Part shown: positions 27,301-52,215 of the stretch, one piece after another
Position numbering within the stretch: position 1 is the stretch's first letter
How the letters are laid out: each line of letters starts with the position of its first letter
IMG/VR virus record: IMGVR_UViG_3300008117_000046
Strand: one strand, 5' to 3'
DNA from: an uncultured virus (IMG/VR IMGVR_UViG_3300008117_000046)
Lineage: Duplodnaviria; Heunggongvirae; Uroviricota; Caudoviricetes
Length of the DNA stretch: 64,000 bases
Translations under genes and position numbers: made by a program
The notes under the pieces: model-generated
Databases searched by the model: none
What the model was told of the DNA's origin: nothing
What the model saw: the letters and a program-made list of their open reading frames with translations, nothing else

Positions 27301-30004
27301 AGAAACTGCATTCCCTAGTCTGGCATCCAGAGTGGCTAACCCCCTCAACTTCGTACAGTACGAGAACTTCATTAAGTACTCGTCGGAACGGCGTACAGGA
27401 GGTAGACGGGTAGATATATATGCTGCAGATGGAGACTGGCTGGAGATGGGCGCGCCTAGATCAATGAGGACAGAGGAGAGCAATATCCTGGGTATGATAG
27501 GGTCCTTCTTAGTTAACTTCTGGGGTAAGATACCACTAATCAACACACCCATTATGACGAGTCTAGCTGGGGGCGTTGCAGCCACTATGATTGCGGGCGC
27601 GATAGGCGCGATGATGAGTTTATTTGGCGTACTAGAGGGAGGGAGGCAGGCACGAGCCATAGATAACGTTATGACTGAGCTGCGTGTTCTATGGGCCGGT
27701 GAGAGGGCGGAATACTTTGTTATAACGGCACCTCAGGCTAAGAGTCCCCTAGGAGAGAACCGTATGAAGTATGAGGTGAAGCGCGGCCGCTTCACTTATA
27801 CGCTACACGCTAGTCCACCTGATGGCATGGGCGGAGAGGTAGGGAAGAGAATAGGTTATTTCCTCAATAGTTTTATGAGTATGACTGCAAATGACGAGAT
27901 GGATACTCTAATGGCACGCGTATACGATGCCCCTATTATAAACGAGAGCACTGTGCGCAGTATAACTGATAGGGATGATCTAGTACGTAGATTAGTAGAT
28001 AGTCTAGATGACACTATAAGCCGCGGGCCCGATAGCTTCCTAACTAAGATACTAAACCTACTAGATAGCGATATATCAATTAATAATGGGCCCGCCCCGT
28101 TCTCACAGAAGGCCTACTCACTACTAGGATTAAGCGAGGAGACATTCAAGATACAGTATGGAGATGCTGACTCATTCCTAAGACGTCGTATACGCGAGGT
28201 CATCAAGGAGACGATAGAGCGCGAGGTTATACGTAAGATATCTCTTAACCCCGACCCTGGTGATGCCTTCATGATATCATCACGCTTCCGTGGTCTGACA
28301 TCAGACGAACAGATACGCATCATAAGCGCTAACGTACTAAATGAACTAGGCTTCCTATTTAAGGATATCAAGGAGAAGGCGCTGATAATGGCTGGGGCCA
28401 CTACTGATATAGAAGTATTACGTAGTCGCAATCAGAGAGTAGAGGACTGGGCCAATAAGCAGGGTGGCATTATAGATATAGAGCGGAAGAAGGCACCTCA
28501 ATGGAAGCGCATATTTCACTGGGATAGCGGTAAGGCCCCCATAGCTGACCCTTCAGAGATAAAGGTCTACCCATTTTTTAAGGCGCGGCTCAGCGCACGG
28601 GGATCGCTTCAGGCATTAGGCGGCGGCATTATGACAGCCTGGGGTGGCATAGAGAGTCTAGATGTAGGTAGCGCATTCATGAGACTCGGCCGATCTCAAC
28701 GGGATGAGCTATACACTGAGGCAGAGAAACAGCTACTTGAGGAGCATGCCGGTATGACAGTGCGTAACTCCATAACTGGTATAGTCACAGGTCTAGTGGC
28801 CGCTAAAGCAATAGGAGCTATAGGCGCGGCAGTCATAGGCGCCCCTCTAATAGCAGCAATAGGAGTGGTAGCAATAGGTGTAGGTATAGCAACAGGACTA
28901 TTTGCGTGGGGCTATAAACACCTAGAGGCAGTCACCAAGGGCGATGCCTGGCAGGACTTCAGTCAAGCTAGTGAGAGATTCTGGACCGGCGTAGATAGAG
29001 CTATAGGCGACATAATCGGAGATAAGATACCCGGCTTTCTATCACTAGGTAATGATCAGGTAAAGGGCGTCATTACATCAGCTATAGGTACGGCACTAGG
29101 TGTAATGTCACTAGTCGGGGCGGCTGCAAGCTGGTTCAAAGGCGCGGGCTGGGGTCTAATAGCTAAATCAGGCCTGGGGGGCCTCCTAGGAGGAACGGCC
29201 ATATCTGCTGTCCCAGGCGTACACGAGACACTGGCTCGTGGTAGTAGTGCCGCAGTAGAGGGTATGGGTAAGATAACAGGGCTGAACATGTTTGTCACGC
29301 CAACAGATTATCTACTAGCGCGTTATAAAGAAGGGCCAGGCGGTATGACACTAGCTATGCCGGGGCGGGCCTTTCAATACAACGCGGATAGATGGGCCGA
29401 AGCTAGCAATGACTCTGCTGGTAATAGGACGGCAGCCATGCTGCTACCGACGCCTGCTGGAGGAGATAGTAACATACAATTACTAGATCCATTCACAGAG
29501 AGAGAGATAGCACGACGGGCCCGTCTCTTCAACGTAGAGATATTCGGACAGACCAGCTGGGTCAAGTCAGCGCGGGCCAGTAGTGATTGGGGCTCCATAA
29601 AAATATACGCTAGGCAGCAGATGCTAGGCCAGTATAAGAACAACATAGCGGCTATTCGCGCTACTGTATCAGACACTATGAATAAGCTAGCCCAGTCAGC
29701 TACTCCTTATAGTGCAGAGGTGGCCCGTCTAGCCATAGCTGTCAGTAAGACAGTAGGCAGGCCTGCACCAGCTACTCAATCTCGAGCCATTATAAGCAAT
29801 AATGGTAACTTCAATCCCGAGCTCAAGGAGATAGCAGAGGAGGCAACACGGCGGGGCCATATAGCACTAATATCTCAGGAGACCAGCGCCGAGCAGAATG
29901 GTAATACAGTAACAGTCACAACAAGACCCAGTGACGATAATAGTCTCTGGGTCAATAGGTTAGATGGTAAACTTGATAGAGAGGCAATGCTACGCATGGG
30001 CTAG
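21308..30004 (+). CDS. Giant 2898-aa virion protein (tape-measure or ejection-protein-like) with multiple hydrophobic segments
   Basis: Uninterrupted 8.7-kb ORF; many Gly/Ala-rich hydrophobic helices, e.g. IGAIGAAVIGAPLIAAIGVVAIGVGIATG; last gene of the structural arm. Confidence 0.6.
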   Translation: MESDLLKQIEAASKYPSAGVGSLEGSSSRFGVSSLSETQRFLRDARPNSLEAALFSHNRFHSDFTLELLHDTFNKESFRAIGQERQDKFYQSMKPYIKMAEGIFTNEIDLYDEVGGTVVVDMTISKRESQALKAASNNLNVIPYTANKGQGTTLMHSKLELITREDGTDVGRVHTAPYITEYGTNALEVGAVVSGIAGAGAIISGRAPRLGIVGAIAAPLLMGAGVMLRNTNSSLLDIGLKSNKKDVFYETSNPKFVTELRTYMRSLAEGRELDTSRNRFILGESEAILAMTRDAQKANGIVLSPASWSLAQARDDDGNIISRDNNLDRNHYARLENFENTIVERASDIPILMATSGQVDSNVHHRLHQAGVIAGSNVGTHYNKHLFENIDEKGTDALYMGTRRFSAQHNREIMIRLTSEDDPAAFAYYKGMLLSDNKFNVSDIEMTQMGYTNKSFIRATTGTTISQLPSFLGASHFYEVAINNAARARVSGHLDWRESLESYTNRPGIATQNYLARAALNGAPSVVPDQVRDYDRALLSPGLGSLINEYTIMAGFGRLYKDEVGALPSIAGAFGAVLDRTLTYYGTFFDYDETRDSMVPVAGVYENALTFASSFVMTTAASMGLYFSIGIPLGYITAELNKSMVQGTIDSAVQKTAGKRYPQHLPILDIAPVDNFELAKYMQEVQGLSGGTLDNYYTNRINTLPALNNLFYRERGATFFEYITKPFILDVMNPYERGSAEDIKLRRSADAFHDSLRRPIGLETTFEERYNPVSREMEPFLVSLRATNIGFERQRELAILIDEVGASLPAAPWRWGWGEGKEDSRSFVSMAEVFSFSEMAESFHRILGTGSQSLNYIVSSSENNTSGMKGLLMRGGAMLGGVMRSTKARLQGNNLFMGIGPIATTNLAAEYKELMKLERQMLVENLLTWEVGINGQGSRQIGNVQTLEQRQLVAKFVDQLIVYNQAIQSSPYYQQAVQRAAGATAAQEDLFRLISGRNSRFLTSSFFRNKGIIGASVLALMNVQTGLANILDASGPSFLRSINLQFGDVDVEEVRYNNRNLILEGPVMGAAYTALAVAGGYVGSEVFGSMAINRYSLSDELYASGNSRLISAEAEGVLKRGTLVKKGNRFMTWGLTTAALLWAPRVITGVGNFIMNIFNRITGQEGQVLDENYATVGSLQAWKQSVLNRVNTGGLVGNRTERTLEAWSAFVAGRISAHTPVAAISQRAKTIEVYASQAPTSYIQFFIAESRRRGSEMDKGVYSYSMGVQSAPVLGISMSVSAPLAFDANKPFAEAFIYNQEKDNVINYIQSAGNVSLAVSLTAGLVSLSALLPEYARSKILRDPTIGAGAKDLSNKMTNLAALVDDWGGRAMNVPIAGARTAVGSFWHYSGKVVDTMAGFSYGALQGFDKLDRRLAKVIALSNFIVPPVLGALFGLTGTSPLTSSLLVGTSLAFAYSFAMKHDPWRKKVAALQSRVARITGMEDIRISRGMHTGLRRWRAYRMPLLLGTIAALFQTKTGWNVSEGMDDNVMTRLATVGLYAGVNAMAVVELGDLGLDPGATIERYRRMRAKVGKMHPLNPLGMWRKLRLASLERDIRSDFNTVETYLSDYRNNRRGYHSFDLLDEHLKTVHGTAYHNAMNEHGRRPSNFQVRDIIDEAGNYRLTDYSENLRTLVDSRDYLKYRNARILGPGGSRLLRSAAALGAVNIAATALLLGVGAILSSSGNQEEATAGFYNAMDDTPLEFVSNAFRLVTRRDIAVAQDPLEPLVVMADGAYKRKRGVRLINPIESSVGRMSTAIDNLRNSFVLNASNPFMSVLVFGTSVREGELGSRQTFYMQLQSTNQDISTAVYSTAPAYMFKMVKAGAMGQLYARDYRKANITDASMNNLSEDQRKFMAISVVSLTARLDPLTDKNRRRVTSPFNRASLALYRADPLMNIALSSRLQVIRNFAYQRPESLVSEMTNLGNPDGMNPRDSKKPKSYLDTLIASLSKGDMRLLAETAFPSLASRVANPLNFVQYENFIKYSSERRTGGRRVDIYAADGDWLEMGAPRSMRTEESNILGMIGSFLVNFWGKIPLINTPIMTSLAGGVAATMIAGAIGAMMSLFGVLEGGRQARAIDNVMTELRVLWAGERAEYFVITAPQAKSPLGENRMKYEVKRGRFTYTLHASPPDGMGGEVGKRIGYFLNSFMSMTANDEMDTLMARVYDAPIINESTVRSITDRDDLVRRLVDSLDDTISRGPDSFLTKILNLLDSDISINNGPAPFSQKAYSLLGLSEETFKIQYGDADSFLRRRIREVIKETIEREVIRKISLNPDPGDAFMISSRFRGLTSDEQIRIISANVLNELGFLFKDIKEKALIMAGATTDIEVLRSRNQRVEDWANKQGGIIDIERKKAPQWKRIFHWDSGKAPIADPSEIKVYPFFKARLSARGSLQALGGGIMTAWGGIESLDVGSAFMRLGRSQRDELYTEAEKQLLEEHAGMTVRNSITGIVTGLVAAKAIGAIGAAVIGAPLIAAIGVVAIGVGIATGLFAWGYKHLEAVTKGDAWQDFSQASERFWTGVDRAIGDIIGDKIPGFLSLGNDQVKGVITSAIGTALGVMSLVGAAASWFKGAGWGLIAKSGLGGLLGGTAISAVPGVHETLARGSSAAVEGMGKITGLNMFVTPTDYLLARYKEGPGGMTLAMPGRAFQYNADRWAEASNDSAGNRTAAMLLPTPAGGDSNIQLLDPFTEREIARRARLFNVEIFGQTSWVKSARASSDWGSIKIYARQQMLGQYKNNIAAIRATVSDTMNKLAQSATPYSAEVARLAIAVSKTVGRPAPATQSRAIISNNGNFNPELKEIAEEATRRGHIALISQETSAEQNGNTVTVTTRPSDDNSLWVNRLDGKLDREAMLRMG

Positions 30005-33742: not shown

Positions 33743-33940
33743 TTAATTGAATTGAAACAACCAGGGATTCCAAGTTAGTTCAGTATTATCATCTAACGTG
33801 ACAACCACTTTGTTCTTATGATTAACGTAGGGGTTACCCTTCGTGTTATAACTATAACCCGCTGACTTAGGATACGTTGATTGATATGCTATATTAGTAA
33901 CTACTTTATTATTAATCTCATCACCTAGCTTGATGTGCAT
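33743..33940 (-). CDS. Hypothetical protein
   Basis: 65-aa ORF overlapping the end of the radical SAM gene. Confidence 0.55.
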   Translation of the reverse strand: MHIKLGDEINNKVVTNIAYQSTYPKSAGYSYNTKGNPYVNHKNKVVVTLDDNTELTWNPWLFQFN

Positions 33941-34842
33941 GAGAAGCCTGCCTGGAAGTAATCGATTAGTGAAGTAGAGTCGAATGACGTGCGGTTATAA
34001 CTACGACTAGTAGGAGCATACTGCTGCTTAACCGCATCAATATACATAGTGAACTGGAAGTCATCGCCCATATAGAAGCGGGCCCACCCCTCATCAGTGA
34101 ATAAACGTCTGAGCTCTAACTGTTCGATAGCCAGGTTATCAAAGGAGAGATTACACCTGCCTATAAGAAAGGGTAGAGAACGCCGCCACTGCGCTATGCC
34201 TGCATCTACCTCAGGGCTATGATAATCTATACCGAAGCCGAAGTTCTTATAGCCTAGTACGAGTACCTTACTGGTTGCAGCACTGAGATTAACCAACTCA
34301 TCGATTATACTAACGGGATGGATACCAGCGATTATGTGATACACGATGTTATCTGAGAGACGCAGTACTGATATCAGACTGCTATAGTTACTACTAGTAA
34401 TTGAGATGCCGAGGCCCCGCACTAACTCCCGGCTTACGATATCCTCTATTAGAGTATCGTAGCGATGTAGATGACCTTGGTTAACAGTAATGTTAGCTAT
34501 AAGCCCGCGGGCCTTAAGTTCTACTAGGTAATCCACTATATTAGGATGAGATAGTGGGTTACCACCTCCGTTTGCTAACTCGACCCCAGCAGGTATATCA
34601 CTAAGGACATCGAGTAACCGTGTTAGGTCAGCGTGTTTACCATTACGAGTAGAACTCTCATGACAATATTTACATCCCATATCACAGTAGTCAGTGATCT
34701 TAATATCTATAGAGCAGGGATAGGCGGGGCGGGCCCCAACCACACTTGTAGTACGAACCAGGGTACCATCAGCATATAGAGTACACTCATAGTCACCATT
34801 GGTATAATGCGCTAAAGTTGTCGTTTCATTAAACTTATTCAT
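33925..34842 (-). CDS. Radical SAM protein
   Basis: CDMGCKYCHE (CxxxCxxC), GGGNP, ANITVN. Confidence 0.9.
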   Translation of the reverse strand: MNKFNETTTLAHYTNGDYECTLYADGTLVRTTSVVGARPAYPCSIDIKITDYCDMGCKYCHESSTRNGKHADLTRLLDVLSDIPAGVELANGGGNPLSHPNIVDYLVELKARGLIANITVNQGHLHRYDTLIEDIVSRELVRGLGISITSSNYSSLISVLRLSDNIVYHIIAGIHPVSIIDELVNLSAATSKVLVLGYKNFGFGIDYHSPEVDAGIAQWRRSLPFLIGRCNLSFDNLAIEQLELRRLFTDEGWARFYMGDDFQFTMYIDAVKQQYAPTSRSYNRTSFDSTSLIDYFQAGFSCTSS

Positions 34843-37095: not shown

Positions 37096-37585
37096 TAAAT
37101 AATCTCCTGTTAATATCAGATGATAGGAAGGCCTCTAACCAGACAGGGCGGGGCTCTATAAGATAACAGGCCCGCGCTGCGATAAGAGGATGATAGAAGT
37201 AAGGTAAAAACTCTAGCTGAGCTAGTGCCTCTATATGATGAGGCGTAGCTATACCTCTATGATCTAGTATACCCAGGGTAGGGTAGCGCTCGTGATATAT
37301 ATTTAGGTTATAGTTGTGCAGATACTCAGTAGTATCTAGACAGTACCAGGCAGCGCCAGAGCGGGGCCGCTCCATATCAGATAGGTAGCCTGTTATAATC
37401 GGCGGGCCCTCACTATCCTCACATAGATACTCTATGGCACGTCTATACATACGCCACTCCTGGGCCCAACTCGACTGTAGTGTTATAGTAACAGCACTAT
37501 AGCGGCCATCAGCGTAACGCCCTACATAATAGGGGTATATCATACAATCGCGAGCTGGTATACTCACGTGATAATTAGTCATCAC
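37085..37585 (-). CDS. Hypothetical protein
   Basis: 166-aa ORF overlapping the primase stop. Confidence 0.6.
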   Translation of the reverse strand: MMTNYHVSIPARDCMIYPYYVGRYADGRYSAVTITLQSSWAQEWRMYRRAIEYLCEDSEGPPIITGYLSDMERPRSGAAWYCLDTTEYLHNYNLNIYHERYPTLGILDHRGIATPHHIEALAQLEFLPYFYHPLIAARACYLIEPRPVWLEAFLSSDINRRLFNVC

Positions 37586-38775
37586 GATCCAAATAGTAGA
37601 GAGGCATATTCAAGGGGCCCTAATTGATTATCTACATAAGGAGCCAGTAGCCCTAAGGGGGAATGAGTGGCAGTTAATACCCGCAATATATCTACGTGAT
37701 GACTAATGTCGGGCCCCCATTGAGCTAGTAAATCATCTACGAATAGTATGCGGTTAGCATTAATAGTATCAGCAGCATTAACGCGAGGCTCTGCTACCAA
37801 CCACTCATTAATATCCTTATAATCAGCAACCATATACGTCATAAGCTCAGCTAATGGTAAGTTAATCTGCAGCTGAACTAGTTGAGGTATGATACGCACC
37901 CAGCTCTTATATACGCCAGCATGAGTAGGATGATCATCGCTATACTTATCTGAGTCGAATATAAATGTGATATGACGGAAGGGCTTGAATTTACTGGTGT
38001 GACATAATAGATACTCCAGACCCAATAACCCCACTACAGGTAAACCACGACCTACTAGTGATGTGGCATCAGGCGGGCCCTCAACTATATATAGCTCGCG
38101 AGCTGGGTGCTTACTATACTCCTTAAGACAATGTTCTAGATAGAGATAGCGCTTACTATTAATAGCGGCCCGCGTATCCTTATAACGGGGGGCCCTCTCA
38201 CTACTACCTATATAGCGACCAACCATATGGACTAGATGACCTCGTGTATCTCGTATAGGGAATATAATGCGTTCCCTATAGTAATCCTCGCCGTCCTCCT
38301 TAATCAGACCCTCGCGGGCTAATGCCTCATGATCTATATCGAATTGACGTAGACCACCAGGAGGAGCATACCCTATACCAATACTACGAGCTAGATCGAG
38401 AGACCAGCCCCGCCGTAGTATATAATCCTGAGCAGCAGGCGTAGTATCAAGATAATAGTGATAGGCCTCTAGCGCGCTCTCTAGTACTATACTGCGAGCA
38501 TCCATAACCTCGCGGGCCTGACGTATACCGGCGCGGGCCTCTAACTGTTGCATAGCCCCAGCATAATCAAGCTTAGTATGCCAACGCCAGGCATTAACCA
38601 GGCCCATACCTGCGTTCAACTCACAACTAGTCCTCCAGCACTTCATATAGTGCGGATATACACTCAGCTTACCGCGGCCCCCACAAGCAGGACAATCATT
38701 AGTACCATGCCGTAGATTTAGTAGCTCTGGTATAGTTAGCCGCTCCATTATCAGTTGTTCATTCTCTCTCGTCAC
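37582..38775 (-). CDS. DnaG-type DNA primase
   Basis: Zn finger CPAC...CWRTSC, IGYAP, RIIFPIRD, GRY...PRYKD, TOPRIM IVEGPPD and FDSD, KDINE. Confidence 0.9.
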   Translation of the reverse strand: MTRENEQLIMERLTIPELLNLRHGTNDCPACGGRGKLSVYPHYMKCWRTSCELNAGMGLVNAWRWHTKLDYAGAMQQLEARAGIRQAREVMDARSIVLESALEAYHYYLDTTPAAQDYILRRGWSLDLARSIGIGYAPPGGLRQFDIDHEALAREGLIKEDGEDYYRERIIFPIRDTRGHLVHMVGRYIGSSERAPRYKDTRAAINSKRYLYLEHCLKEYSKHPARELYIVEGPPDATSLVGRGLPVVGLLGLEYLLCHTSKFKPFRHITFIFDSDKYSDDHPTHAGVYKSWVRIIPQLVQLQINLPLAELMTYMVADYKDINEWLVAEPRVNAADTINANRILFVDDLLAQWGPDISHHVDILRVLTATHSPLGLLAPYVDNQLGPLEYASLLFGS

Positions 38776-41700
38776 CGCTCTCCGTATATTGTATGAATGC
38801 CCTATAATAACTAAGCTTGAACTTAAACATTAATACATATTGCCTGTTAATGGCAAGATGCTCGAGATAAGTGATGTCACTTACCCGTAGCCCATTCCAT
38901 AAGAATATCTCGGTCAACATACCTCACCCACGTCATCCATACTTCCGTTCTTAAGGGATACCTTCGACATGGTTCAGGCCATATATTTATATCTCGTCTA
39001 TCGCGCCACATATCGCCCTCTAATATAAATTGCATACTTCCAGTCTGTAATAAAACAAAGCAAGTTCGAAAGAATTACAATCATAAAACTTACGCATTAA
39101 GTGATATACCTCAATGGGGGGTTCAGGCATAAACATAGAGGCCTTCAGCTTATTGTGCAGAGTCCAATCGTTATGATTAATAGTATTCATTCAAACAAAC
39201 CTTTATGATTCAATCTAGAGTAAAACGAACCGACATGATTCCTGCTCATTAAATAAGAGCGGGTTACTAAGTAATTTGCAGGCTCAATAAGTATAAAGGC
39301 CTTAAGCTTATTGTGTAGAGACCAATCATTAATCATAATCATCTTCATTGAAATCATCTTCATTGAAATAACCGCCCTTATGTATAATGTCATCCTTACT
39401 CATTCTCATCTAAAATGTGTTAGACAATTCACTTACCAGTCTATAGTAAAACTGGTCGACAGAGGTAATAAGTATAGAGGCCTTCAGCTTATTGTGCAGA
39501 ATCCAAATATTACAATTTAGTCTTCATCGAAATAATTGTATAGCAGTCTATAGTAAAATTGATCTATAAAAGTAATAAGTATAGAGGCCTTGAGCTTATT
39601 GTCGATAGTCCAGTCGTAAAGCGAACCCAATTTGAAATAATCATTATTACACAGAACCCAATTATTATATAAAATCCAATAAGTAGAAATTCTCTTCATC
39701 AAAACAAACCCTTATGATTCAATCTAGAGTAAAACGAACCGACCTTATTAAATAAGACCAGGTTACTAAGTAATTTGCCCCAACGAAAGACTCAATAAGC
39801 ATAGAGGCTTTTTATTATTTGTCTCAGTGGAAGGTTCAGTAATAAGTATAGAAGCTTTAAGCTTATTGTGTAGAGTCCAATCACACAAACTCTTATGACC
39901 CAATCTAGAATAAAACAAACCGACATAGTACCTGCTCATTAAATAAGACCAGATACCATAATTTGCCTTAACGGAAGGCTCAATAAGCATAAAGGCCTCA
40001 AAGGTCCAATCATTAATCATAATCATCTTCATCGAAATAACCGTCCTCATTTAGAATAATAAACCAATAAAACCGGGTTACTAAATAATTTGCCCCAACG
40101 GAAAACTCAAGCATAGGGGCCTTAATAAGCTTATTGTGCAGAGACCAATCATTAATCATCTTCATCGAAATAATCATCTTTATATAGAATGTCGTATATC
40201 GCAGCTCTTAGTCTATAGTAAAACCCGCCGGTAGAGATAATAAGTGTACGGGCCTTTAACTTATTGTTGAGAGTCCAGTCGTAAAACAAAGCAAGTTTAA
40301 AAACTTTACAATTAACCATCTTCATAAAATGCAACTCTTATGATTCAATCTAGAGTAAAACGAACCGACATAATACCTGCCCATTAAATAAGACTCGGTT
40401 ACTAAGTAATTTGCCCCAACGGAAAACTCAATAAGCATAGAGGCCTCAAGCTTATTGTGCAGAGACCAATAATCATTAATCATCTTCATCGAAATAACCG
40501 TCCTCATATTCATCAAATTGGCCATCCTCAAGATAATAACCGCCCTCATCTAGAATATCATCTTTATCTAGGATGTTTTCTAACATATTTATCAATCTAC
40601 AGTAAAACCGGAAGATAGAGCCGCAACACTTGCTTAGTTTAGGAGTATAAATCTCGAAACCCATCTCTTCATAATAATGAAACAAGCGCAAGGCATTGAG
40701 ATAATCATTATTCAAAATCCAAGGTAACAGACAATCGTTAGAAACATTCTTCATTGAAATAACCGTCCTTATATAAAATATCATTCTTATTCATCCTCAT
40801 CTAGAATGTTATGTATAACACACTTACCAGTCTATAATAAAACTGGTCGACAGAGATAATAAGTATAGAGGTCTTCAACTTATTGTGCAGAGTCCGAAAG
40901 TAATTTGCCCCAACGGAAGGCTCAATAAGCATAGAAGCTCTAAGCTTATTGTTTAGAGTCCACCCTTCACATATAATCATCTTCACTAGAATAACCGTCC
41001 TTATGTATAAAGTAATCCTTATTCATTCTCATCTAGAATGTGTTAGACAGTCTATAGTAAAACAGGTCTACAGAGGTAATAAGTATAAAGGCCTTCAGCT
41101 TATTGTGCATAATAAAGGCAAATTTGAAAGATTTATAGCTTACTAAATCATTTATCTCAGCGAAAGACTCAGTAGTAAGTATAAGGTTATTATGTGTAAT
41201 CCAATATTTAGAGATAGTGTTCATTAAAGTAATCATCCTCATTTAGAATATCACTCTCATCTAGAGCGTTATATATAAAAGCCACTAGTCTATAGTAAAG
41301 CCGGTTGATAGAGCACTTGCTTAATTCAGGAATATGACTCTCGAGGCCCACATCCTCATAATAATAAAACAAGTAATTAAGCTTGTTACAACTAATTGCT
41401 CTCATTGAAGTAATCGCCCCCCATTCAGAAAGCCATATATCCCAAATTCTCCCATTCTATAATAAAACCAGGCGAGTCCCCCAGGACTATAAGCAAAATA
41501 CAATTTACCTAATAATACCTGTAGGTCAACAGACGGATCAGTAATAGGTATAGGTATATTTAACCTATTACGTGGGGCCCATTTGCTACAATTAATTATC
41601 TTCATCGAAATAATCATCCTCATCTAGAATGTTATATAACACATCTCCTAATCTATGATAAAATACGTTGATAGGAACATGTAACTTGTTCAATTCAGGG

Positions 41701-44700
41701 ATATAGACCTCGATACCCATGTTTTCATAGTAGTAACGATAAGACCATAGATGGTATTTTCTATTACGAGGAGCCCAATTATTACAACTAATCATCTTCA
41801 TCGAAATAATCGTCCTTATCTAGAGCGCTATATAATCTAGAGTAGAACGAACGGACGTAGAACCTGCTTATTAAATAAAACCTAGGTACTAAGCCGGTTG
41901 TTCTAACGGAAGGCTCAATAAGCATAGAGGCTCTAAGCTTATTGTGTAGAGTCAACTCATCACATATAATAGTCTTCATAAAAACATACTCCTACCCAGT
42001 CTGAAGTAAAACAAAGATGTCGAAGCAGACACCCCCACCCAAAAAATACTGTAATGCGTAGCGAGGTTGAAATAATTATGATTATAATACTTTCTTACAT
42101 TTATATCAGTGGAAGGCTCTCTACTAGATATAGATACCCTAAGTTTGTTATTAAGCATAGGCCAATAACTAATCATCTTCATCGAAATAATTATCCTCAT
42201 ATAGAATGTCGTATATCGTAGCTTTTAGTCTATAGTAAAACCCGCCGGTAGATAATAACTTTAGCTTATTCTTGGGAGTCCAGTCGTAAAACAAAGCAAG
42301 TTTGAAAACGTTACAATTAATCATCTTTATAGAATATATACTTATTTACTATGTCACATACCAGTCTATAATAAAATCGGTCGACAGCATAAAACCTTAA
42401 TTCAGGAGTATAGGTATCGATATCCATACGCTCACAATAATAAAAGAAGTAATTAAGCTTGTTATAACTAATTGCCCTCATTGAGGTAACCGCCCCCCAT
42501 AAAGGCCATATAACCCAAATCCTCCCAGCCTATAATAAAACCAGGCGAGTCTCCCAGGACTACAAGCAAAATACAATTTACCTAATAATCCTTGTAGGTC
42601 AACAGACGGATCAGTAATAGGTATAGGTATATTCAAGTTATTACGTGGGGCCCAATTGTTACAATTAATCATCTTCATTAAAGTAATTGTCCTCATATAG
42701 AATGCTATACAACACTACTCCCGCTAGTCTATGGTAAAACCTGGCAGGCCCCCCAGCGTTATAAGTATGAAAGTTATAGTTATAGAAACTGTAGTATAAA
42801 CTATCACTGTCTACTAAAATCGACGGGTCAGTGATATATGTATTTAGTTTACTACGTGAAGGCCAACCATTAATCATCTTCATCGAAATATAACAATCTA
42901 TGGTAAAATCAAACAGTCCCTCCTCTAGAATCATCAAGATAGAAGTTATAGAATAACTTATTATCTGCTATCAGAGGGTTAGTAATGGGTACAGGTGCAT
43001 TCCATGCATACGAAACCCATTCAATATCACGCGGAGCCCAACCGTTAGAATTAATTATCTTCATAGAAATAATGATAGGTTACGGTAAACGCAAGCGACT
43101 CCTCCGGCACTATAAGTGTGAAATTTATAGTATAAATAATTACGGTTTGCTATCAACGGGTTGGTAATAGGTACAGGTATATCCCGTATATGCGCAGCCC
43201 TTCTATTACGAGAGGCCCAATTGTTACAATTAATCATCTTCATCGAAATAATCATCCTCATTCAAAGGTAACACTACTGCTCCTGCCAGTCTATAATAAA
43301 ACATAGTGAGCCCCCAATAAACTCTAATAGGCATAGATATATTCAACTTATGACGTGGGACCCATTTGTTACTACCAACTATCTTCATAGAAATCGTCCT
43401 TAGCGAACAGTGTCAGTCTATAATAAAATAACATGATAGAAGTTTTGTAGTGGTAACGATAAAAGCTATAGTATAAACTATCACTGTTTGCTAAAACCGA
43501 CGGGTCAGCAGCAAGTATATTCAACTCATTACGTAAAGGCCAATTGTTAATAATCTTCATCGAAATATAACAATCTATAGTAAAACCAAGCAGGCCCTCC
43601 ACCATGATAAAGATAGAAGTTATAGAATAACTTATTATTATCTGCTACTGGAGGAACAATAATAGGTACAGGTGCATTCCATTCATACGGAGCCCATTTA
43701 ATAGTACGCGGAGCCCAATCATTACAATCAATCATCTTCATAGAAATAATCCCCCTCCCCTAGAAAGTCATATAACAAACATGCTAGTTTATAATAAAAC
43801 AAGTCGATAGGAACATGTAACTTGTCTAATTCAGGGATATAGGCCCCGAGACCCATGCTTTCATAGTAGTAACGATAGAACCATAGATAGTATAGATTAT
43901 CACCATTTGGTAAAATCGGTGGGTCAGTAATAGGTATCGGTATACTCAACTTATTACGTGCAGTCCAACAATCGTTATTACTATGAGGCGCCCAATTGTT
44001 ACAATTAATCATCTTCATAGAAGTAATAATAGGTTGTAGTTATCTTCATCTAGAAAGCTATACAACACTACTCCTACTAGTCTATTGTAAAATTTGGCGG
44101 GCCCTCCATCATGATAAAAATAGAAGTTATAGAATAACTTATTATCTGCTATTGGAGGGACAGCAGTAGGTACATATGCCCCCCATCCAGACGGAGCCCA
44201 TTTAATATTACGCAGAGCCCAATTATTACAATTAATCTTCTTCATAAAAATAATGATAGGTTATATTACGGTAAACGCAAGCGACTCCTCCGGCACTATA
44301 AGTGTGAAAGTTATAGTATAAATAATTATGGTTTACTATTAACGGGTTAGTAATAGGTATGGGTGCGGCCTCTTCATACGGAACCGGCTTATTACGAGGA
44401 GCCCAATCGTTACAATTAATCTTCTTCATAGAAGTAATATTCTGCCCCTGTCAGTATATAATAAAACATATCAAGCCCCCCAGTATCATTATAAACATAA
44501 AAACTATCGTATAAATTATCAATGCTCATTAGAGGCGGATTAGTGGTAGGTATGTATGGAGTCCACGCATAACGAGGAGCCCAATTGTTAGAATTAATCT
44601 TCTTCATCGAAATAAGTGTCCTCATATAGAATGTTGTATAGCACACTGAAATAACCACCCTCATTTAGAATGTTATATAACATATATGACAGTCTATGAT

Positions 44701-46120
44701 AAAACCAGACGAGTCTCTCAGGATTATAAGCAAAAAAGCATAATCCCTGTAGGCCAACAGGCGGGTTAGTAATAGGTATAAGTATACTCGACTGATTACG
44801 TGGGGCCCAATTGTTAGAATTAATCTTCTTCATCGAAATAATTGTCCTTATATAGAATATATAATACTATTCCCGACAGTCTATAGTAAAATATAGCAAG
44901 TCCTCTAGAATTATAAAGATAGAAGCTATAGTATAAATTATTGATATTTGCTACTGGCGGGGCAGTGATAGGTATAGGTGCAATCCATTCACTACACGGG
45001 GCCCAGCAATTTGGATTAATTGTTTTCATAGAGATAGTTATCCTCAGCTAAAATATCAATATCCTGTCTGTAGTAAAACGCCTTGAAATAAAAGAAGTTG
45101 ATAGAGACATATAACTTGTGTAATTCAAGGGTATAGGCCCCATATATACTTATCTGCCATGTGTATACACAGTCTATAGTAAAATCGGTCGACAGCATAA
45201 AACCTTAATTCAGGAGTATAGGTATCGAGACCCTCAACAAAATAAAAAAAGTAATTAAGCCTGTTACATCTAATCGCTCTCATTGAAGTAATCACCCCCC
45301 AAGCTTAAGGTCTCATTCAGAAAGTGATATATCACAAATTCTCCCAGTCTATAATAAAACCAGGCGAGTCTTCCAGGACTATAAGCAAAATACAATTTGC
45401 CTAATAACCCCTGTAGGTCAATAGGCGGGTCAGTAATAGGTATAGGTATATTCAAGTGATTACGTGGGGCCCAGTCATTACAATTAATTATCTTCATCGA
45501 AATAATCATCCTCACCTAAAATATCAATATACCAGTCTATGTTAAAGAGCGCTGATAAAAACGCAGGTTATAATAAAACAAGTCGATAGAAAAATATAAC
45601 TTGTCTAATTCAAGAGTATAGGCCCCAATTATAATTTCATAGAACCATGTATAATATAAATTATCGCCGTTTGCTAGAATCGCTGGGTCAGTAATGGATT
45701 TAGATATAGACATATGTGGACCCCAATTACTACTAAGCCAACCATTACAATTAATAATCTTCATAGAGATAATCATCCTCATCTAATGATAGTTTACGGT
45801 AAAACCAAGCAAGCCCTTGATTATTATAAGTATGAAACTTATAGTATAAATTATGACCACTTGTTATCAGAGGATCAGTAATAGGTACAAGTTCACCCCA
45901 ATATGGAGCCCATCTAGTATTACGAGGAGCCCAATCATTAGAATTAATAATCTTCATCGAAATAGTCCCCCTCATCTAGAATGTTATATAATACATTTCC
46001 TGCCAGTCTATAGTAAAACTTGGCGGGCCCCCCAGCATTAACGTAGTAGTAGACCCATTCGCGATACGGCGCCCATTTCTCATTATGGGGCGCCCAACAG
46101 TTTGTATTAATCTCTTTCAT
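38759..46120 (-). repeat. Tandem array of about 35 paralogous mini-ORFs (about 200-bp units) joined by a conserved junction repeat
   Basis: Recurrent + strand motif aatcatcttcatcgaaataatc near 39340, 39520, 40020, 40155, 40480, 41595, 41790, 42170, 42670, 42870, 43230, 43550, 43730, 44010, 44235, 44420, 44600, 44820, 45485, 45750, 45945 and others. Units encode MKxI(N)..W..(R/H)N..P..(F/Y)YxRL..DEDDYFDEDD. Confidence 0.9.
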
Positions 46121-46523
46121 CAAATGCCTCCTTTTTTACTGGACGTAAAACCGACTTTTTCTTATAAGCAACCACCATTAAATACACCTCTAACAAAGCC
46201 TCAATAAGAGACTCCTGCCGAGAACCAAAACAGCGTGAAGTCTTGGAAGGATCAGGATTCACGCTGACCTGCACAGTATAACTATTAGGTAATCGTTGGA
46301 TGACCCAACCATAGCCAAAGCTATCTAGACGCATTTGGAAAAAATAGATCAACTTAGCAAGCGACCCCCGATCTAACAAAAAGGGATCAGGATCAGAGGT
46401 AGAGATAGAAATCCAATCACCCCAAGATAGTTGGATAAAAAAGGTATTCCGAAAAGTACCCACTCCATACCCACAAATGTGAGGCTCAGACTTGACCCAA
46501 TCGTGCAAAAATTCAGTAAGCAT
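46107..46523 (-). CDS. Hypothetical protein leading the mini-gene array
   Basis: 138 aa, SD GGAGG; its end (FDERD*) overlaps the first array ORF (MKEINTNCWAP, ATG at 46120). Confidence 0.65.
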   Translation of the reverse strand: MLTEFLHDWVKSEPHICGYGVGTFRNTFFIQLSWGDWISISTSDPDPFLLDRGSLAKLIYFFQMRLDSFGYGWVIQRLPNSYTVQVSVNPDPSKTSRCFGSRQESLIEALLEVYLMVVAYKKKSVLRPVKKEAFDERD

Positions 46524-46560
46524 TTATACCCTCCGTATAGATGACAATATGTTGTACCAC

Positions 46561-46595
46561 ATACTGTTATTTCAGTTGTCCTGAAATAACAGTAT
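46561..46595. other. Perfect 15-bp inverted repeat
   Basis: atactgttatttcag-ttgtc-ctgaaataacagtat. Confidence 0.8.
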
Positions 46596-46677
46596 AACTA
46601 ATTATTCTTATCATCAATAAGAATAGACTAACTAGCAAAAGAATACTCGTTAAGATACTTTATGTCTAATTAATTAA

Positions 46678-47004
46678 TTAAAATTGTTGAATAATAACGC
46701 CCCCCTCAAATTTAATTACTGTTGTTCTGTCTTCTAGATAAGTAATAGCAGATGACTCTACATCATTCTCATCCTCATCATCTTCTGGTATAAAGCCATA
46801 ATGTTCGGCCGCTTCTAGTGCGCTAGAGTATTCTGAATATTCACACTGCATAGCGACTCTATCAAATTCGATAGATTTATCAAGGTCATCCTCTAAATCT
46901 TCTAGATACCCAACTAAAGCCTCAGCGCCCGACCATGACCAATCAGCATTACCATCTTCTTTGAGTAGCTTGATTGCCTTATCGGTGCTTATATTTTGGT
47001 GCAT
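46678..47004 (-). CDS. Hypothetical acidic phage protein
   Basis: EFDRVAMQCEYSEY motif; 108 aa. Confidence 0.65.
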   Translation of the reverse strand: MHQNISTDKAIKLLKEDGNADWSWSGAEALVGYLEDLEDDLDKSIEFDRVAMQCEYSEYSSALEAAEHYGFIPEDDEDENDVESSAITYLEDRTTVIKFEGGVIIQQF

Positions 47005-47055: not shown

Positions 47056-47090
47056 AAAAATAGCCCCCCTGCACTTTGGCAGGGGGGCTA
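47056..47090 (-). terminator. Intrinsic terminator
   Basis: Hairpin tagcccccctgc-actttg-gcaggggggcta next to A5 (U tract on the - strand). Confidence 0.8.
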
Positions 47091-47125
47091 CTAATAATAG
47101 ATGAAAGGTTTTACCTCACAGTAGT

Positions 47126-47410
47126 TCACCCATTGTTATCAAATAGGTTTCTATAGGCCTGGTATACGGCATCAGGTGCCTCCTCGTCATTGTATTGTTG
47201 AGCCAACTTGTATATAGATAAGAAGCTCAATAGATTAGGGCGGTAGTTAGGGATAATACAATAACCACCCTTAATCCATTTAACACACGCGAGACGGCGA
47301 GTACCATAAAACCAGCAGAAGATCTCGTCGCCAAGAGTCGTACGAGATTGATATGGTTCGCGAAAGTCAGATATACGCCCCCGCAAGTATCTAAGTAAAT
47401 CGAACATCAT
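47126..47410 (-). CDS. Hypothetical protein
   Basis: 94-aa ORF with ATGA overlap with the helicase stop. Confidence 0.55.
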   Translation of the reverse strand: MMFDLLRYLRGRISDFREPYQSRTTLGDEIFCWFYGTRRLACVKWIKGGYCIIPNYRPNLLSFLSIYKLAQQYNDEEAPDAVYQAYRNLFDNNG

Positions 47411-48585
47411 AATTTAGTACCTAACTGATTATAGAATTTAAGGATAGAAGGCTCTATATAGCAACTATCACAGAAGGTAGATCGTGTACCTATCAGGCGG
47501 AGGCCGCTATAATGACGTACACGACTAAGAATAGTATAGAGGCCCCCGCTGAGCCAACGTAAATTACTGAGACGAGCCTGTACGTTATTAAGCGTAAGCC
47601 CCTGACTACGATGAACAGTGAGGGCGTAGCCCAGTCTAACGGGTAAGTAGTGGCAGCGGCCCAGTAGCTTGTTAGTGCCGAGCTCTTTATTATCTCGTGT
47701 TACGTATTCAATGATAGTCTCCTGACCGGTACGTTCTACTGTCACCAGTATAGTGTTAGTCATGAGCTCCTTGACTATAGCGATATCGCCATTAGCATAC
47801 GCAGGTAGTCTGTTACGAAGTAGAATAACGCGCGCGCCCTTCCTCAGCTCTACTGATTCGGGTATTTGGCTCCACTCAGGAGCGGCCCTACACCCCTTCG
47901 GTATAACGTAGTTCTTAGTGTAGAGGCGACTAGGCCCTTCTAGTTGTGCTAAGTGCACGGCGTTATATCTATCTACACTATCATTAGTAGTCAGGATAGT
48001 AGTGCCCGCGTAGTTATCATCGATCTGATTGACAAACTCTACATTATCCATGAACCAATCTACTGCTTCCTGAGGCCGCCCTTCTCTTACGCTAGTCAGT
48101 GCCTGTATAAAGCCGGGGTCACTCTGGCGCCTGACCTCTCGTAAGTACTGTATATCGAAGCTCTGCAGGCAGTCTGTTTGATAGACTGGCGTGCTAGTGA
48201 CCTTCTTATCTGGTACTAGTGGTAACTGACAGAAGTCCCCCACGAGTAGGAGATTCATATTTATGTTACTCTTCTCCATTACGTGATGGATAATAGTTAG
48301 TTGCGGGCCATGTAACATACTGATCTCGTCTATGACTAGGGTATCGAAAAGATTAGATATAGCCCGTAGCTTAGTGGCCAGCGCTCCACTGGAAGCAGCG
48401 CGTAATAGGCTAGTAGTGTCGAAAAACTGGAGGGCCGCGTGAACAGTAGTACCGCCTGCATTAATAGCGCTCACGCCGGTACTACTAGTGATGAGGGCCT
48501 TACTCAAACTCTGTATGTATGTTGTTTTACCACTCCCTGCTGGACCCAGCAGCATCTGATAGGGGCCGTTGAACGTTATCTGCAT
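47407..48585 (-). CDS. Pif1/RecD-like SF1B helicase
   Basis: GPAGSGKT, STGVSA, DEISM, GDFCQLP, RRQSD and YALTVHRSQGLTL. Confidence 0.9.
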   Translation of the reverse strand: MQITFNGPYQMLLGPAGSGKTTYIQSLSKALITSSTGVSAINAGGTTVHAALQFFDTTSLLRAASSGALATKLRAISNLFDTLVIDEISMLHGPQLTIIHHVMEKSNINMNLLLVGDFCQLPLVPDKKVTSTPVYQTDCLQSFDIQYLREVRRQSDPGFIQALTSVREGRPQEAVDWFMDNVEFVNQIDDNYAGTTILTTNDSVDRYNAVHLAQLEGPSRLYTKNYVIPKGCRAAPEWSQIPESVELRKGARVILLRNRLPAYANGDIAIVKELMTNTILVTVERTGQETIIEYVTRDNKELGTNKLLGRCHYLPVRLGYALTVHRSQGLTLNNVQARLSNLRWLSGGLYTILSRVRHYSGLRLIGTRSTFCDSCYIEPSILKFYNQLGTKL

Positions 48586-49844: not shown

Positions 49845-50117
49845 TTAATACTCATTGAGTCGCATTTTTAGATTCTTCAGTTTTTCAAGTTTTCTTTCAG
49901 TTTGTTTAATTGCTTTAAGTCTCTTTTCTTCAAAGACTTTTTGAGCTTCTGTTTCCGTTAGCACATACTCTTTTGAGGTAAATCCGTCTAGCATTAACAT
50001 ATTAAATTTACGGGGATTATCCGGGGAAAATACCCCATGGCAGATTTTTCCATTGCACTTTATAATGCCACTTGTCAAAGCGTATTTTGTGACATAAACT
50101 GTAATTGTTTCGTCCAT
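49845..50117 (-). CDS. Hypothetical phage protein
   Basis: VYVTKYALTSGI motif; SD AGGAG. Confidence 0.7.
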   Translation of the reverse strand: MDETITVYVTKYALTSGIIKCNGKICHGVFSPDNPRKFNMLMLDGFTSKEYVLTETEAQKVFEEKRLKAIKQTERKLEKLKNLKMRLNEY

Positions 50118-50146
50118 TGATTTACTCCTATGGTTATTATTTTTAG

Positions 50147-50228
50147 TGGGTTAGGCTGGGTTTGCACCAGCGTGGAATTACTCTACAGATTTACAGTCTG
50201 TCGCCTTCGACTACTCGGCCACTAACCC
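50147..50228 (-). tRNA. tRNA-Tyr(GTA)
   Basis: Acceptor GGGTTAG/CTAACCC, anticodon arm ACAGA-CTGTAAA-TCTGT, long variable arm, T arm GCTGG-TGCAAAC-CCAGC; CCA not encoded. Confidence 0.9.
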
Positions 50229-50240
50229 TTGTTTAGATTT

Positions 50241-50269
50241 ATCTTACCATAATTCTTAATGCCTGTCAA
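50241..50269 (-). promoter_or_regulatory. Sigma70-type promoter for tRNA-Tyr
   Basis: TTGACA, 17-nt spacer, TAAGAT on the - strand. Confidence 0.75.
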
Positions 50270-50731
50270 TCATGGTTTTTGATTTTCTTGATTCTTTTGA
50301 GATTCTTGCAAATTGAGAAGTTGAAGCACAGCTTCATCTGCGTCTTTACGCGCCATACTACAAGTCCATAGTCTTTGTTCATTGCGCTTAATAATGATAA
50401 TTTCTGTATCAGAAACTGAACAAACTAAATCATTTTTCTGTTTTATTAGTTGATTAAGAGATTCTATTCGTTGCTTTTGTTCTAATTCAGAAACGGGTTG
50501 AGGTTTTTCTCCGTACTCTTGTGTAGAGAAAACAATAGCTAACATAAAACTTTTTGTTTCTTTAAACTGAAACCGAATAATCTGCCAACTAAATTCACCA
50601 TCAGGTTCTAATTCTCGATTCCAAATATTTAGAAAGGTCTGTAAATAACCTTCTAATCCTTTTTGAGTTTGACGGTTTTTATTAATATCACTGACTAAAA
50701 ATCCCGTATCTAACAGAATATTTGACTTCAT
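50270..50731 (-). CDS. Protein resembling the C-terminal domain of cyanobacterial N6-MTase/type IIG R-M enzymes
   Basis: IIIIKRNEQRLWTCSMARKDA motif; no catalytic MTase motifs. Confidence 0.45.
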   Translation of the reverse strand: MKSNILLDTGFLVSDINKNRQTQKGLEGYLQTFLNIWNRELEPDGEFSWQIIRFQFKETKSFMLAIVFSTQEYGEKPQPVSELEQKQRIESLNQLIKQKNDLVCSVSDTEIIIIKRNEQRLWTCSMARKDADEAVLQLLNLQESQKNQENQKP

Positions 50732-50973
50732 TTGCTGCCAATACCTCGAAGATAGTCTTTATTAGTGGCTAAGTCCCCCGGTCCGCCATCGACACAACCA
50801 ATATATTCTTTGGCTGCTTCATAGAATGAAATCGTTTTTTCTTCAGTGAGTTCTTTCTTCTCTGCCTTAAATTGCAAGAATTTAATAAAGTCGATTACTT
50901 CTTGCTGTTGTTGGGGAGTGAGGGCGTTTAGTTTTTCTAAGATGGTTTGTGAGTGAGTGGTTGCTGATATCAT
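50728..50973 (-). CDS. DUF2281-like putative antitoxin
   Basis: ILEKLNALTPQQQQEVIDFIKFL and C-terminal GPGDLATNKDYLRG. Confidence 0.65.
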   Translation of the reverse strand: MISATTHSQTILEKLNALTPQQQQEVIDFIKFLQFKAEKKELTEEKTISFYEAAKEYIGCVDGGPGDLATNKDYLRGIGSK

Positions 50974-51104
50974 GGGTTAATTCTCTTGGGGGTTCTTCTG
51001 ACTGACTGTCTTGAATAGAGTAAGAGTAAGAATATCAAGGATTTAACAGTTCTACATAAAACATATTGTGACTCCGATTAATTTTACATATAAAGTTTTA
51101 ATGT

Positions 51105-51410
51105 TTATTCATTGCCAAGATACCATTGCTTATCACTAAGAAACCAGAAAAACATTCCTTTGCAAGAATTAGTACAGTCTTTCTCAGATATTAATTCTTG
51201 CCATAAACGAAAACATTCAAAAAATTGCTCCCATCCATAAGGAACATCTTCTTTAAGATTAGTCCAAATAATAGATAGATACCTTTCGATAAGATTGCGT
51301 ATTGTTAAGATTAAAGAGTGTGGTTTTATTCCCATCTCTTTTAGTTCTGCTTTGGTTAATTTCTTTCTTAGAAATTGATCGATCTTTTTATCTAGTTGCG
51401 TTTGATTCAT
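51105..51410 (-). CDS. Hypothetical protein
   Basis: 101-aa ORF starting 12 nt downstream of a CRISPR-like repeat. Confidence 0.55.
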   Translation of the reverse strand: MNQTQLDKKIDQFLRKKLTKAELKEMGIKPHSLILTIRNLIERYLSIIWTNLKEDVPYGWEQFFECFRLWQELISEKDCTNSCKGMFFWFLSDKQWYLGNE

Positions 51411-51422
51411 TGTTTAGTATCA

Positions 51423-51925
51423 GTTTCAATCCCTAATAAAGCTTAAACTTAATTGTTTCTTTTTCCTTAATATTTAATCTTCTCCCCAATCTGGGTAGTA
51501 TTGTAAATAGACAGCTTGTCGCTCGATAGCTTCCTTCTCAAGCTTTTCAATTTCTTCGTCATCGAAGTCGTGGTCCCAAATTAGAGAATCAAGAAACTGG
51601 TCTTCTTTCTCTATAAACAATTCCTTCTTAACCATAAAATCTTGGCAACCATAAGACATCCCTCCGCTTTTCCCTATAAAAATAAGCGCATTGTCTTCAA
51701 CGGTCGCCAAAAACTCTTTTAATTGTTTTGCAGTAATCACTTTGTGTCTCCTAAATAAAAAGTTATCTTATCAATATTCGGATTGGGAATCTACCATAAT
51801 TCAATCAGTTTCAATCTCTAGTAGGGTTTAAAACTAATACACAATAACACCTACTATTAACCAATTACGTTGAGTATGATAATGGTGAATCTCAAACCCT
51901 ACTAGGGATTGAGATTAATTCTAAC
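51423..51925 (-). CRISPR. Three degenerate type I-D-like repeats (51423-51459, 51808-51844, 51889-51925); no cas genes
   Basis: Each matches 28-29 of 37 nt by my manual alignment to the Microcystis repeat as I recall it (GTTCCAATTAATCTTAAACCCTATTAGGGATTGAAAC); all three in the same orientation. Confidence 0.65.
51474..51740 (-). CDS. Small acidic hypothetical protein between CRISPR-like repeats
   Basis: 88 aa, D/E-rich, SD AGGAG, GTG start. Confidence 0.65.
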   Translation of the reverse strand: MITAKQLKEFLATVEDNALIFIGKSGGMSYGCQDFMVKKELFIEKEDQFLDSLIWDHDFDDEEIEKLEKEAIERQAVYLQYYPDWGED

Positions 51926-51951
51926 ACAATTTCTAATGTCTGTTAATAACT

Positions 51952-52215
51952 ATGGCTAAGAAGAAGAGCTTCACTTTTAAGAAAGAGCACAAGGATCCGG
52001 ACGGAGGGCTAACAGCTAAGGGCCGCGCTGATTACAATCGCGCTACTGGCTCTAACCTGAAGCCCCCTGCCCCTAATCCCAAGAACAAGACGGATGCGGC
52101 CCGCCGTAAGAGCTTCTGTGCGCGTAGCGCAGGCCAGGCGGATATGCACGATATAGACTGTCGCAAGACACCTAACAAGCGCTTATGCAAGGCCCGCAAG
52201 GCATGGGCATGCTAG
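51952..52215 (+). CDS. DUF6321-like basic phage protein
   Basis: KDPDGGLTAKGR..YN...GSNLKPP...RRKSFCARS...W.C. Confidence 0.8.
   Translation: MAKKKSFTFKKEHKDPDGGLTAKGRADYNRATGSNLKPPAPNPKNKTDAARRKSFCARSAGQADMHDIDCRKTPNKRLCKARKAWAC

Follow-up and report, generated by a model that had tools for sequence, protein, structure and literature searches.

A 64,000-nucleotide (nt) stretch of the uncultured virus record IMGVR_UViG_3300008117_000046 from IMG/VR (hereafter, the window) carries on its - strand a tandem array of about 36 small paralogous genes, all assigned to the PHROG family phrog_4393, which follow one another across a short repeated junction. At this junction, the end of one gene and the start of the next are commonly read from the same bases in different frames. 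The window belongs to a Ma-LMM01-like Microcystis myophage (Fukuivirus). We propose that the junction, which spans about 33–45 nt, would act as the boundary module of the phrog_4393 tandem family in Ma-LMM01-type Microcystis phages. As the best explanation of the data, we consider it probable that this module chains the genes together and is also a substrate for unequal homologous recombination. Five parts of this explanation are documented directly below: the anatomy of the junction, its conservation, the coding nature of the units, an RNA sequencing signal in Ma-LMM01, and insertions and deletions of units with breakpoints in the junction.

All 12 array units tested matched phrog_4393 at E<0.01 (8 of them below 1e-9), while none of the units had a Pfam or NCBIfam hit. 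The 78-kb virus record equal to the window, corresponding to about 46% of a genome, contained 35 family matches, all within one 7.1-kb stretch. Stop-free runs of at least 45 codons cover 95.5% of the sense strand of the array compared with 55% of the antisense strand and a maximum of 61% in 200 shuffles, and 264 of 283 junction starts open a frame of at least 45 codons. Within the conserved W-A-P-R-N motif, third codon bases vary freely (Ala: GCT 25, GCC 17, GCG 7; Pro: CCA 25, CCT 17, CCG 14, CCC 10), the Leu of the FYYRL motif is encoded by CTG, CTA, TTG or TTA, and, of 213 indels that separate close units, 117 have a length divisible by three. When 1.84 billion representatives were searched with a profile, 64 proteins were returned at E≤0.001: 63 relatives of 42–97 amino acids (aa) and one unrelated tandem-repeat protein of 543 aa, which was discarded as spurious. 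The AlphaFold2 model of unit 45270-45497, built from 43 sequences, is weak (predicted local distance difference test score 62, predicted template modelling score 0.29) and places two helices after a disordered N-terminus; the ESM Atlas yielded no usable hit for an array unit. Members of the family are already public, as hypothetical proteins in genomes and in PHROGs. We found no description of the junction or the array in the literature covered, which took in the relevant part of the MaMV-DH01 paper but not the Ma-LMM01 genome paper, where the array may be mentioned.

Anatomy of the junction

A preliminary description of this DNA, made from the letters alone, stated that the junction repeat is read in two frames. 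This is borne out at its best copy, where the open reading frame (ORF) 43230..43388 ends in NEDDYFDEDD and ORF 43061..43261 begins MRMIISMKMINCNNW, using the same bases one position on. The 33-nt consensus occurs at 8 places on the - strand with at most 3 mismatches, compared with 0 in 100 shuffles. Using a 22-nt core and allowing up to 7 mismatches, we obtained 42 hits on the - strand of 38700-46700 (18-nt internal echoes included); its + strand gave 0, and the remaining 56 kb gave 8 over both strands. Inspection of the consensus shows that its upstream 18 nt echo the start-bearing 18 nt at 15 of 18 positions. A position matrix derived from 32 window junctions scored at least 16.3 bits at each of these junctions, on which it was trained, and never above -2.1 outside the array. 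The junction pattern had 0 matches in 185,579 prokaryote genomes, and its occurrences in IMG/VR were confined to the same Fukuivirus-like contigs.

Consecutive genes had been described as overlapping by 14 nt. This is true of the pair cited (ORFs 44015..44245 and 44232..44429) and of 19 of the 36 window junctions, but the other 17 are not canonical: 7 overlap by 4 nt (ATGA), 2 by 17 nt and 1 by 20 nt, gaps of 25 and 39 nt separate the genes at 2, and 5 lack an upstream ORF of at least 35 codons. Across relatives, we analysed 273 unique junction windows (of 283) from 10 arrays: one in the window, three in GenBank phages and six in IMG/VR contigs. The ATG of the start reading MK (position 0) is present in 266 of the 273, TGA follows at +1 in 267, and a stop (TAA, TGA or TAG) lies at +11 in 221; the upstream ORF therefore usually ends inside the junction in either non-start frame. 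Consistent with this, overlaps of 14 nt (183 junctions), 4 nt (14) and 1 nt (4) all occur, alongside 24 junctions with 11, 17 or 20 nt. Conservation is highest at ATGA, at the ATT of +9..+11 and at the TT of -4/-3. An upstream start reading MR, which had been offered as an alternative, fails as a general start: ATG occupies position -18 in only 93 of 273 junctions, and TAA or TAG stands there in 42, leaving MK as the general start.

An SD-like (Shine–Dalgarno-like) motif is carried by 205 of the 273 junctions with a modal spacer of 11 nt, in agreement with the GAGGA previously placed about 11 nt before the ATG; in 117 of these 205 junctions the distance from the end of GAGGA or AAGGA to the ATG is 11 nt, and in 31 it is 12 nt. 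SD-like runs were found within -19..-9 in 190 of 273 junctions, compared with 6.8% of interior windows, and are distributed over all overlap classes (14-nt, 130/183; 17/20/11-nt, 12/24; 4/1-nt, 7/18; other or none, 41/48). The module comprises an SD-like purine run (GAGGA/AAGGA), a U-rich spacer and the universal MK ATG of the next gene, together with TGA at +1 and TAA, TGA or TAG at +11; its tail frame encodes ...YF[DYN]E[DE][DNY], the C-terminus of the preceding gene's product.

The acidic tails had been suggested to be a by-product of this design. By codon logic, ATG-AAG-(ATG/ATT/AAG)-ATT-(A/G)A yields a tail end of [DNYH]-E-[DE]-[DYN]-stop, so that the last four residues are forced, because the MK(M/I/K)I codons of the next gene overlap them. 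For these four residues the suggestion stands; for the preceding YF it is unproven, and the Tyr at -7, considered below, points to selection on the protein. Acidic tails are lost in the 18 junctions of the 4/1-nt class, from several arrays, and are dispensable in some units.

Turnover of array units

The flanks of the array are 93–95% identical to the Microcystis phages Ma-LMM01, MaMV-DC, -DH01, -CH01/02 and -DL01/02 (genus Fukuivirus), whereas the array itself gives piecewise matches only, with 28–40% covered at about 84% identity. Complete arrays measure 4.2–9.0 kb between anchors, with 18–38 junctions called. At ≥93% identity, the window array is shared over 19–34% of its length with four IMG/VR relatives. 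An assembly artefact is unlikely, because two IMG/VR contigs (L007 and L008) carry an identical inter-anchor stretch of 7332 nt.

An in-register crossover inside the repeat was expected to regenerate both start and stop, and could be read base by base in two relatives, L013 and L011. Both lack one unit of the window; upstream of the core, the single junction that they have instead matches the left junction of the window, and downstream of the core the right one, with ATG and TAA kept. The search for breakpoints inside the repeat also identified a four-unit gain in L011, again with the crossover in the junction core; both recombinant junctions keep the ATG and a stop. Among mosaic boundaries (that is, ends of shared segments), 173 of 372 lie in the junction zone (-30..+40), compared with 29% expected by length; left segment ends cluster along the upstream border of the junction, right ends along its downstream border. 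The junction-zone share exceeded the null in 10 of 10 arrays. In 12 pairwise chains, all four boundaries fell within -30..+45 for 22 of 67 discontinuities, as did 148 of 268 single boundaries.

Per array, junctions account for 36–56% of boundaries, similar to their share of intra-array repeated 16–24-mers (28–56%), which identifies the junction as the main shared homology rather than a dedicated recombination site. Ordinary homologous recombination wherever identity exists would be the simplest reading of these patterns. As the sole sequence common to all unit subtypes, the junction would be the commonest substrate for unequal exchange, and a crossover within it would add, remove or swap whole units while recreating an intact start and stop. 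Such modularity may have selective value. Recent block duplications were also seen, in which three copies of one unit type are each followed by an MRAI-type unit. The FYYRL motif was considered as a second recombination hotspot and rejected, since it was not enriched (0–9% of boundaries compared with a null of 7–11%, 10 arrays). Separately, a single low-depth RNA-library contig with short sides skips 181 nt (one unit, 43552-43734) with its joint inside a junction; it may represent a genuine variant or stem from assembly, and was not used as evidence.

Expression and competing explanations

Table S3 of a Ma-LMM01 infection transcriptome (PMC5780444) places gp137, 145, 150 and 157 in middle class B5, with log2 fragments per kilobase per million (FPKM) of 7.6–9.2 at 3 h; log2 FPKM values given in the same work for primase and helicase are 10.9 and 9.9. 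The array would accordingly be transcribed within the middle (replication) class. The window's array is covered by metatranscriptome contigs (4 runs, 1 study), almost all at ≥99% identity, which bridge several junctions, although such contigs can neither establish that there is a single transcript nor rule out DNA carry-over. Promoter-like sites in the array numbered 58, compared with 38.1 ± 6.1 in shuffles, and terminator-like sites 6 compared with 4.4; these signals are weak in such an AT-rich region and were not used. In cyanobacteria, according to the relevant part of Huber et al. 2019 (PMC6728339), SD sequences are little used in de novo initiation but amply when translation reinitiates at gene pairs that overlap. 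From the sequence, we infer that the purine run serves as an SD and that neighbouring units are translationally coupled; most likely, the units would be translated as a chain via termination-reinitiation, helped by the SD-like run.

A different account would confine selection to the proteins, with the conserved N-terminus (MKxIN..W.PRN) and the acidic-aromatic tail both functional, the overlap a matter of compaction, and recombination at this place incidental. The conserved motif residues with free wobble positions agree with it, as do the Ile at codon 4 (ATT), retained even where the upstream ORF stops at ATGA, and the Tyr at -7, which is retained in 150 of 183 junctions. This Tyr is encoded at the interior TAT:TAC ratio (112:38 compared with 125:43 in unit interiors), a signature of protein-level selection, and, lying upstream of the overlapped residues, it looks protein-selected. 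Other positions depart from interior codon usage: the Glu codon at -16, within GAGGA, is GAG in 98 cases and GAA in 5 (with Lys AAG instead in 18), compared with GAA 20 and GAG 29 in interiors, while Phe at -4 is TTC in 144 and TTT in 17, compared with 19 and 64 in unit interiors. Where Lys replaces Glu (22/183), AGGA is still kept; the tail is lost by frameshift throughout the 4/1-nt class; and SD-like runs persist in the class with other or no overlap. The GAG and TTC bias, together with these latter runs, points to a signal at the RNA level, and we regard selection on the proteins alone as unlikely.

Neutral concerted evolution, with the junction being simply the least-diverged part of recent duplicates under gene conversion and having no selected role as a ribosome-binding site or cassette boundary, is less likely still. 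The equal shares of boundaries (~46%) and repeated k-mers (28–56%) at junctions and the recent block duplications would suit it, but the motif is kept in all subtypes and all 10 arrays, whereas interiors share 0–60% at ≥93% identity between most arrays; the near-invariance of ATG and of TGA at +1 and the lack of excess identical neighbouring junctions also argue against it. We give very little credence to an untranslated array, namely an AT-rich repeat acting at the DNA or RNA level (such as iterons or an origin region lying between the primase and the helicase) with incidental ORFs. It draws on the GC (guanine-plus-cytosine) content of 34–37% in the array compared with 39–47% in the adjoining kilobases, on the position among replication genes, and on a ratio of non-synonymous to synonymous substitution rates (dN/dS) in unit interiors that is barely apart from that of one off-frame. 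Set against this are the sense-strand ORF coverage, the codon-position variation inside conserved motifs and the excess of in-frame indels; moreover, Rfam had no family match for the array or junction, and no stable RNA structure was found at junctions (mean z +0.43, 0 of 36 with z below -2). Least probable of all is programmed +1 frameshifting at each junction to fuse the units into polyproteins. The frame does step by +1 at each canonical junction, and some junctions leave the start frame open over a few upstream codons (MRMIIS), but reading of -15..0 revealed no slippery heptamer or shifty stop context, the start frame is closed at -18 by TAA or TAG in the 42 junctions noted above, and each unit is equipped with a conserved ATG and an SD-like run of its own.

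Several observations nonetheless weigh against a module that both chains the genes and promotes their recombination. The modal 11-nt spacer exceeds that of other window genes, of which 18 of 44 have an SD-like motif, 15 of these 18 at 4–10 nt. For junctions of the 14-nt class, the SD and the coding of Glu-Asp are confounded, and fixation of GAG and TTC could have come about through shared ancestry or gene conversion, not selection of a ribosome-binding site. Overlaps of more than 8 nt are rare among the coupled pairs treated in the relevant part of Huber et al. 2023 (PMC10666635). The dN/dS in unit interiors is 0.54 in frame compared with 0.58 and 0.79 in the two off-frames, and protein-level constraint outside the motifs is therefore weak. 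Local homogenisation of neighbouring junctions was not detected (3 identical adjacent 24-mers compared with 1.6 expected, P = 0.22). The p-values of the boundary enrichment, below 0.05 in 8 of 10 arrays, are overstated, because boundaries are not independent events and the counts include shared ancestry. Finally, about half of the mosaic boundaries lie inside units, not at junctions. This and the 17 non-canonical junctions of 36 restrict the earlier notion of a self-contained cassette junction, which holds as far as the whole-unit gains and losses with crossover in the core and the enrichment of the zone are concerned.

Genomic setting and related systems

Among the large ORFs of the window, PHROG matches include tail fibre, terminase, primase, Dda-like helicase and clamp loader. 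The array extends slightly beyond the range first assigned to it (39330..46125), its final unit being 39020-39190, and the junctions follow one another at a median spacing of 193 nt. It is flanked by the Dda-like helicase (47407-48585) with a 138-aa ORF at one end and by the primase (37582-38775) at the other. Individual sites are collected in Table 1.

Table 1. Coordinates of the array and of individual sites within it
Position	Strand	Feature	Basis
39020..46123	-	Tandem array, ~36 small paralogous genes (50-96 aa), all phrog_4393	ORFs, profile matches
39337..39369	-	15-nt tandem duplication inside a junction (MKMISMKMIMIN start)	Sequence reading
43061..43064	-	Example of 4-nt ATGA overlap; upstream unit without acidic tail (...VYRNLSLFL-stop), junction nucleotides retained	ORFs
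43230..43262	-	Best 33-nt junction copy (1 mismatch): tail NEDDYFDEDD-stop, GAGGA, ATGAAGATGATTAA start of next gene	Consensus match
44232..44245	-	14-nt stop/start overlap cited in the preliminary description	ORFs 44015..44245 and 44232..44429
45016..45198	-	C-terminal half of a unit, left as a remnant that is fused behind unit 45125-45283; breakpoint not at a junction	ORFs
45484..45516	-	Junction (ATG at 45497) with 4 extra units in relative L011 and ~950 nt more in L022	Comparison
45537..45764	-	Early-ending unit with a 39-nt gap before the next start; intact-length relative P0092	ORFs
45751..45957	-	Unit present in the window, absent in relatives L013 and L011; crossover in junction core	Comparison
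46107..46120	-	First junction: end of 138-aa ORF, KKEAFDERD-stop, over ATGAAAGAGATTAA, preceded by AAGGAGG	ORF reading
46107..46523	-	138-aa ORF leading into the array, without family match	Profile searches

The homologue of the 138-aa ORF in Ma-LMM01 and MaMV-DC ends in ...KEGI and overlaps the next start by 1 nt, not 14 nt, suggesting that its end is read in another frame. Read by eye in another frame, the DNA of the early-ending unit gives the acidic tail. In Ma-LMM01, two transposase genes (gp135/gp136, L001 3713-5471) are inserted between the primase and the array, a place where the window has none. Between the array and the primase, phages of the CH01, DL01 and DH01 type have three additional genes, of 120, 136 and 172 aa (CH01 coding sequences 148L-150L, L003 6668-7978); two of these and the last array unit end in ...NEIQE or ...DEVQE, which hints at a second conserved gene-end motif.

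Two low-GC islands (39000-46000, 34–37%; 50000-52000, 32–36%) stand out in a genome of about 44–51% GC; the first is the array, and the second adjoins a phage transfer RNA (tRNA) gene, tRNA-Tyr with anticodon GTA (50146-50228, - strand). Compared with 30 other window ORFs, the array proteins are rich in Tyr (10.7% vs 4.0%), Asn (8.6 vs 4.9) and Phe (5.6 vs 2.7), and the tRNA-Tyr may serve the Tyr-rich array. Elsewhere in the window, a 2898-aa ORF (21308-30004, + strand) matches phrog_29513, a PHROG of unknown function, from end to end. Contigs from 3 of the 4 metatranscriptome runs skip 37 nt at 47058-47096 at full depth, a population variant that sits in the spacer between ORFs 46678-47004 and 47126-47410.

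Microcystis is a bloom-forming cyanobacterium, and phages of this kind help to control its toxic blooms. With flanks that are 93–95% identical and arrays that share 0–34% of their length, the array is the fastest-changing part of Ma-LMM01-type genomes, and a host-range or counter-defence function of these phages may sit in it. A bolder proposal is that the junction is a selected, frame-proof and recombination-proof connector for an evolvable library of small host-directed peptides, which we consider doubtful. If true, such peptides might be, for example, decoys or inhibitors directed against the unusually rich defence repertoire of Microcystis; any unit placed beside any other would still be translated in the chain, and cassette turnover between co-infecting phages would be the unit of adaptation. 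If units are indeed linked by reinitiation, the array would constitute a natural run of about 35 coupled genes with an atypically long, dual-coded 14-nt overlap, and a test bed for the backward movement of terminating ribosomes in cyanobacteria.

Prochlorosin and cyanobactin precursors form multi-copy families of ribosomally synthesized and post-translationally modified peptides (RiPPs) with conserved ends and a variable core. The array resembles them in that its small paralogues are many, vary in the middle and are conserved at both termini, and a radical S-adenosylmethionine (SAM) gene lies 4 kb away. In contrast to RiPP precursor arrays, its units have no Pfam or NCBIfam precursor match, and the radical SAM gene (33925-34842, - strand), although conserved in all relatives, is not adjacent. 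The encoded protein shows the generic core only (Pfam 32.7 bits), and its NCBIfam scores of 15–28 bits, with weak hits including the prokaryotic viperin model, compare with cut-offs of 131–650. As for diversity-generating retroelements, the 78-kb record, which represents about 46% of a genome, gave no RVT_1 reverse transcriptase match.

Closest to the array are its counterparts in sequenced phages: gp137-gp157 of Ma-LMM01 and the ORF runs of MaMV-DC, -DH01, -CH01/02 and -DL01/02 share the family (PHROG 4393), the position between helicase and primase, and the junction. Despite the near-identity of the flanks, the window array has only 0–3% of its length in common with Ma-LMM01, MaMV-DC and CH01 at ≥93% identity. 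Like tandem multigene arrays undergoing unequal crossing-over, these arrays display copy-number change, mosaic units and breakpoints enriched in a conserved segment; unlike in other tandem arrays, this segment carries the translation signals of both neighbours, and no dedicated recombinase or site is evident. In its layout, the array agrees with the termination-reinitiation pairs described in the relevant parts of PMC6728339 and PMC10666635, being co-directional, with each start falling within the final part of the gene before it, an SD-like motif in the upstream gene and ATGA at nearly every junction. It differs in its overlap of 14 nt, where 4, 1 or 8 nt are usual and longer ones rare in the pairs treated in PMC10666635, and in repeating one conserved dual-coded sequence about 35 times in a row, with putative coupling. 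The array would thus combine the layout of termination-reinitiation pairs, repeated about 35 times, with the evolution of a tandem array under unequal crossing-over, and the mechanism itself, coupling together with unequal crossing-over, is ordinary.

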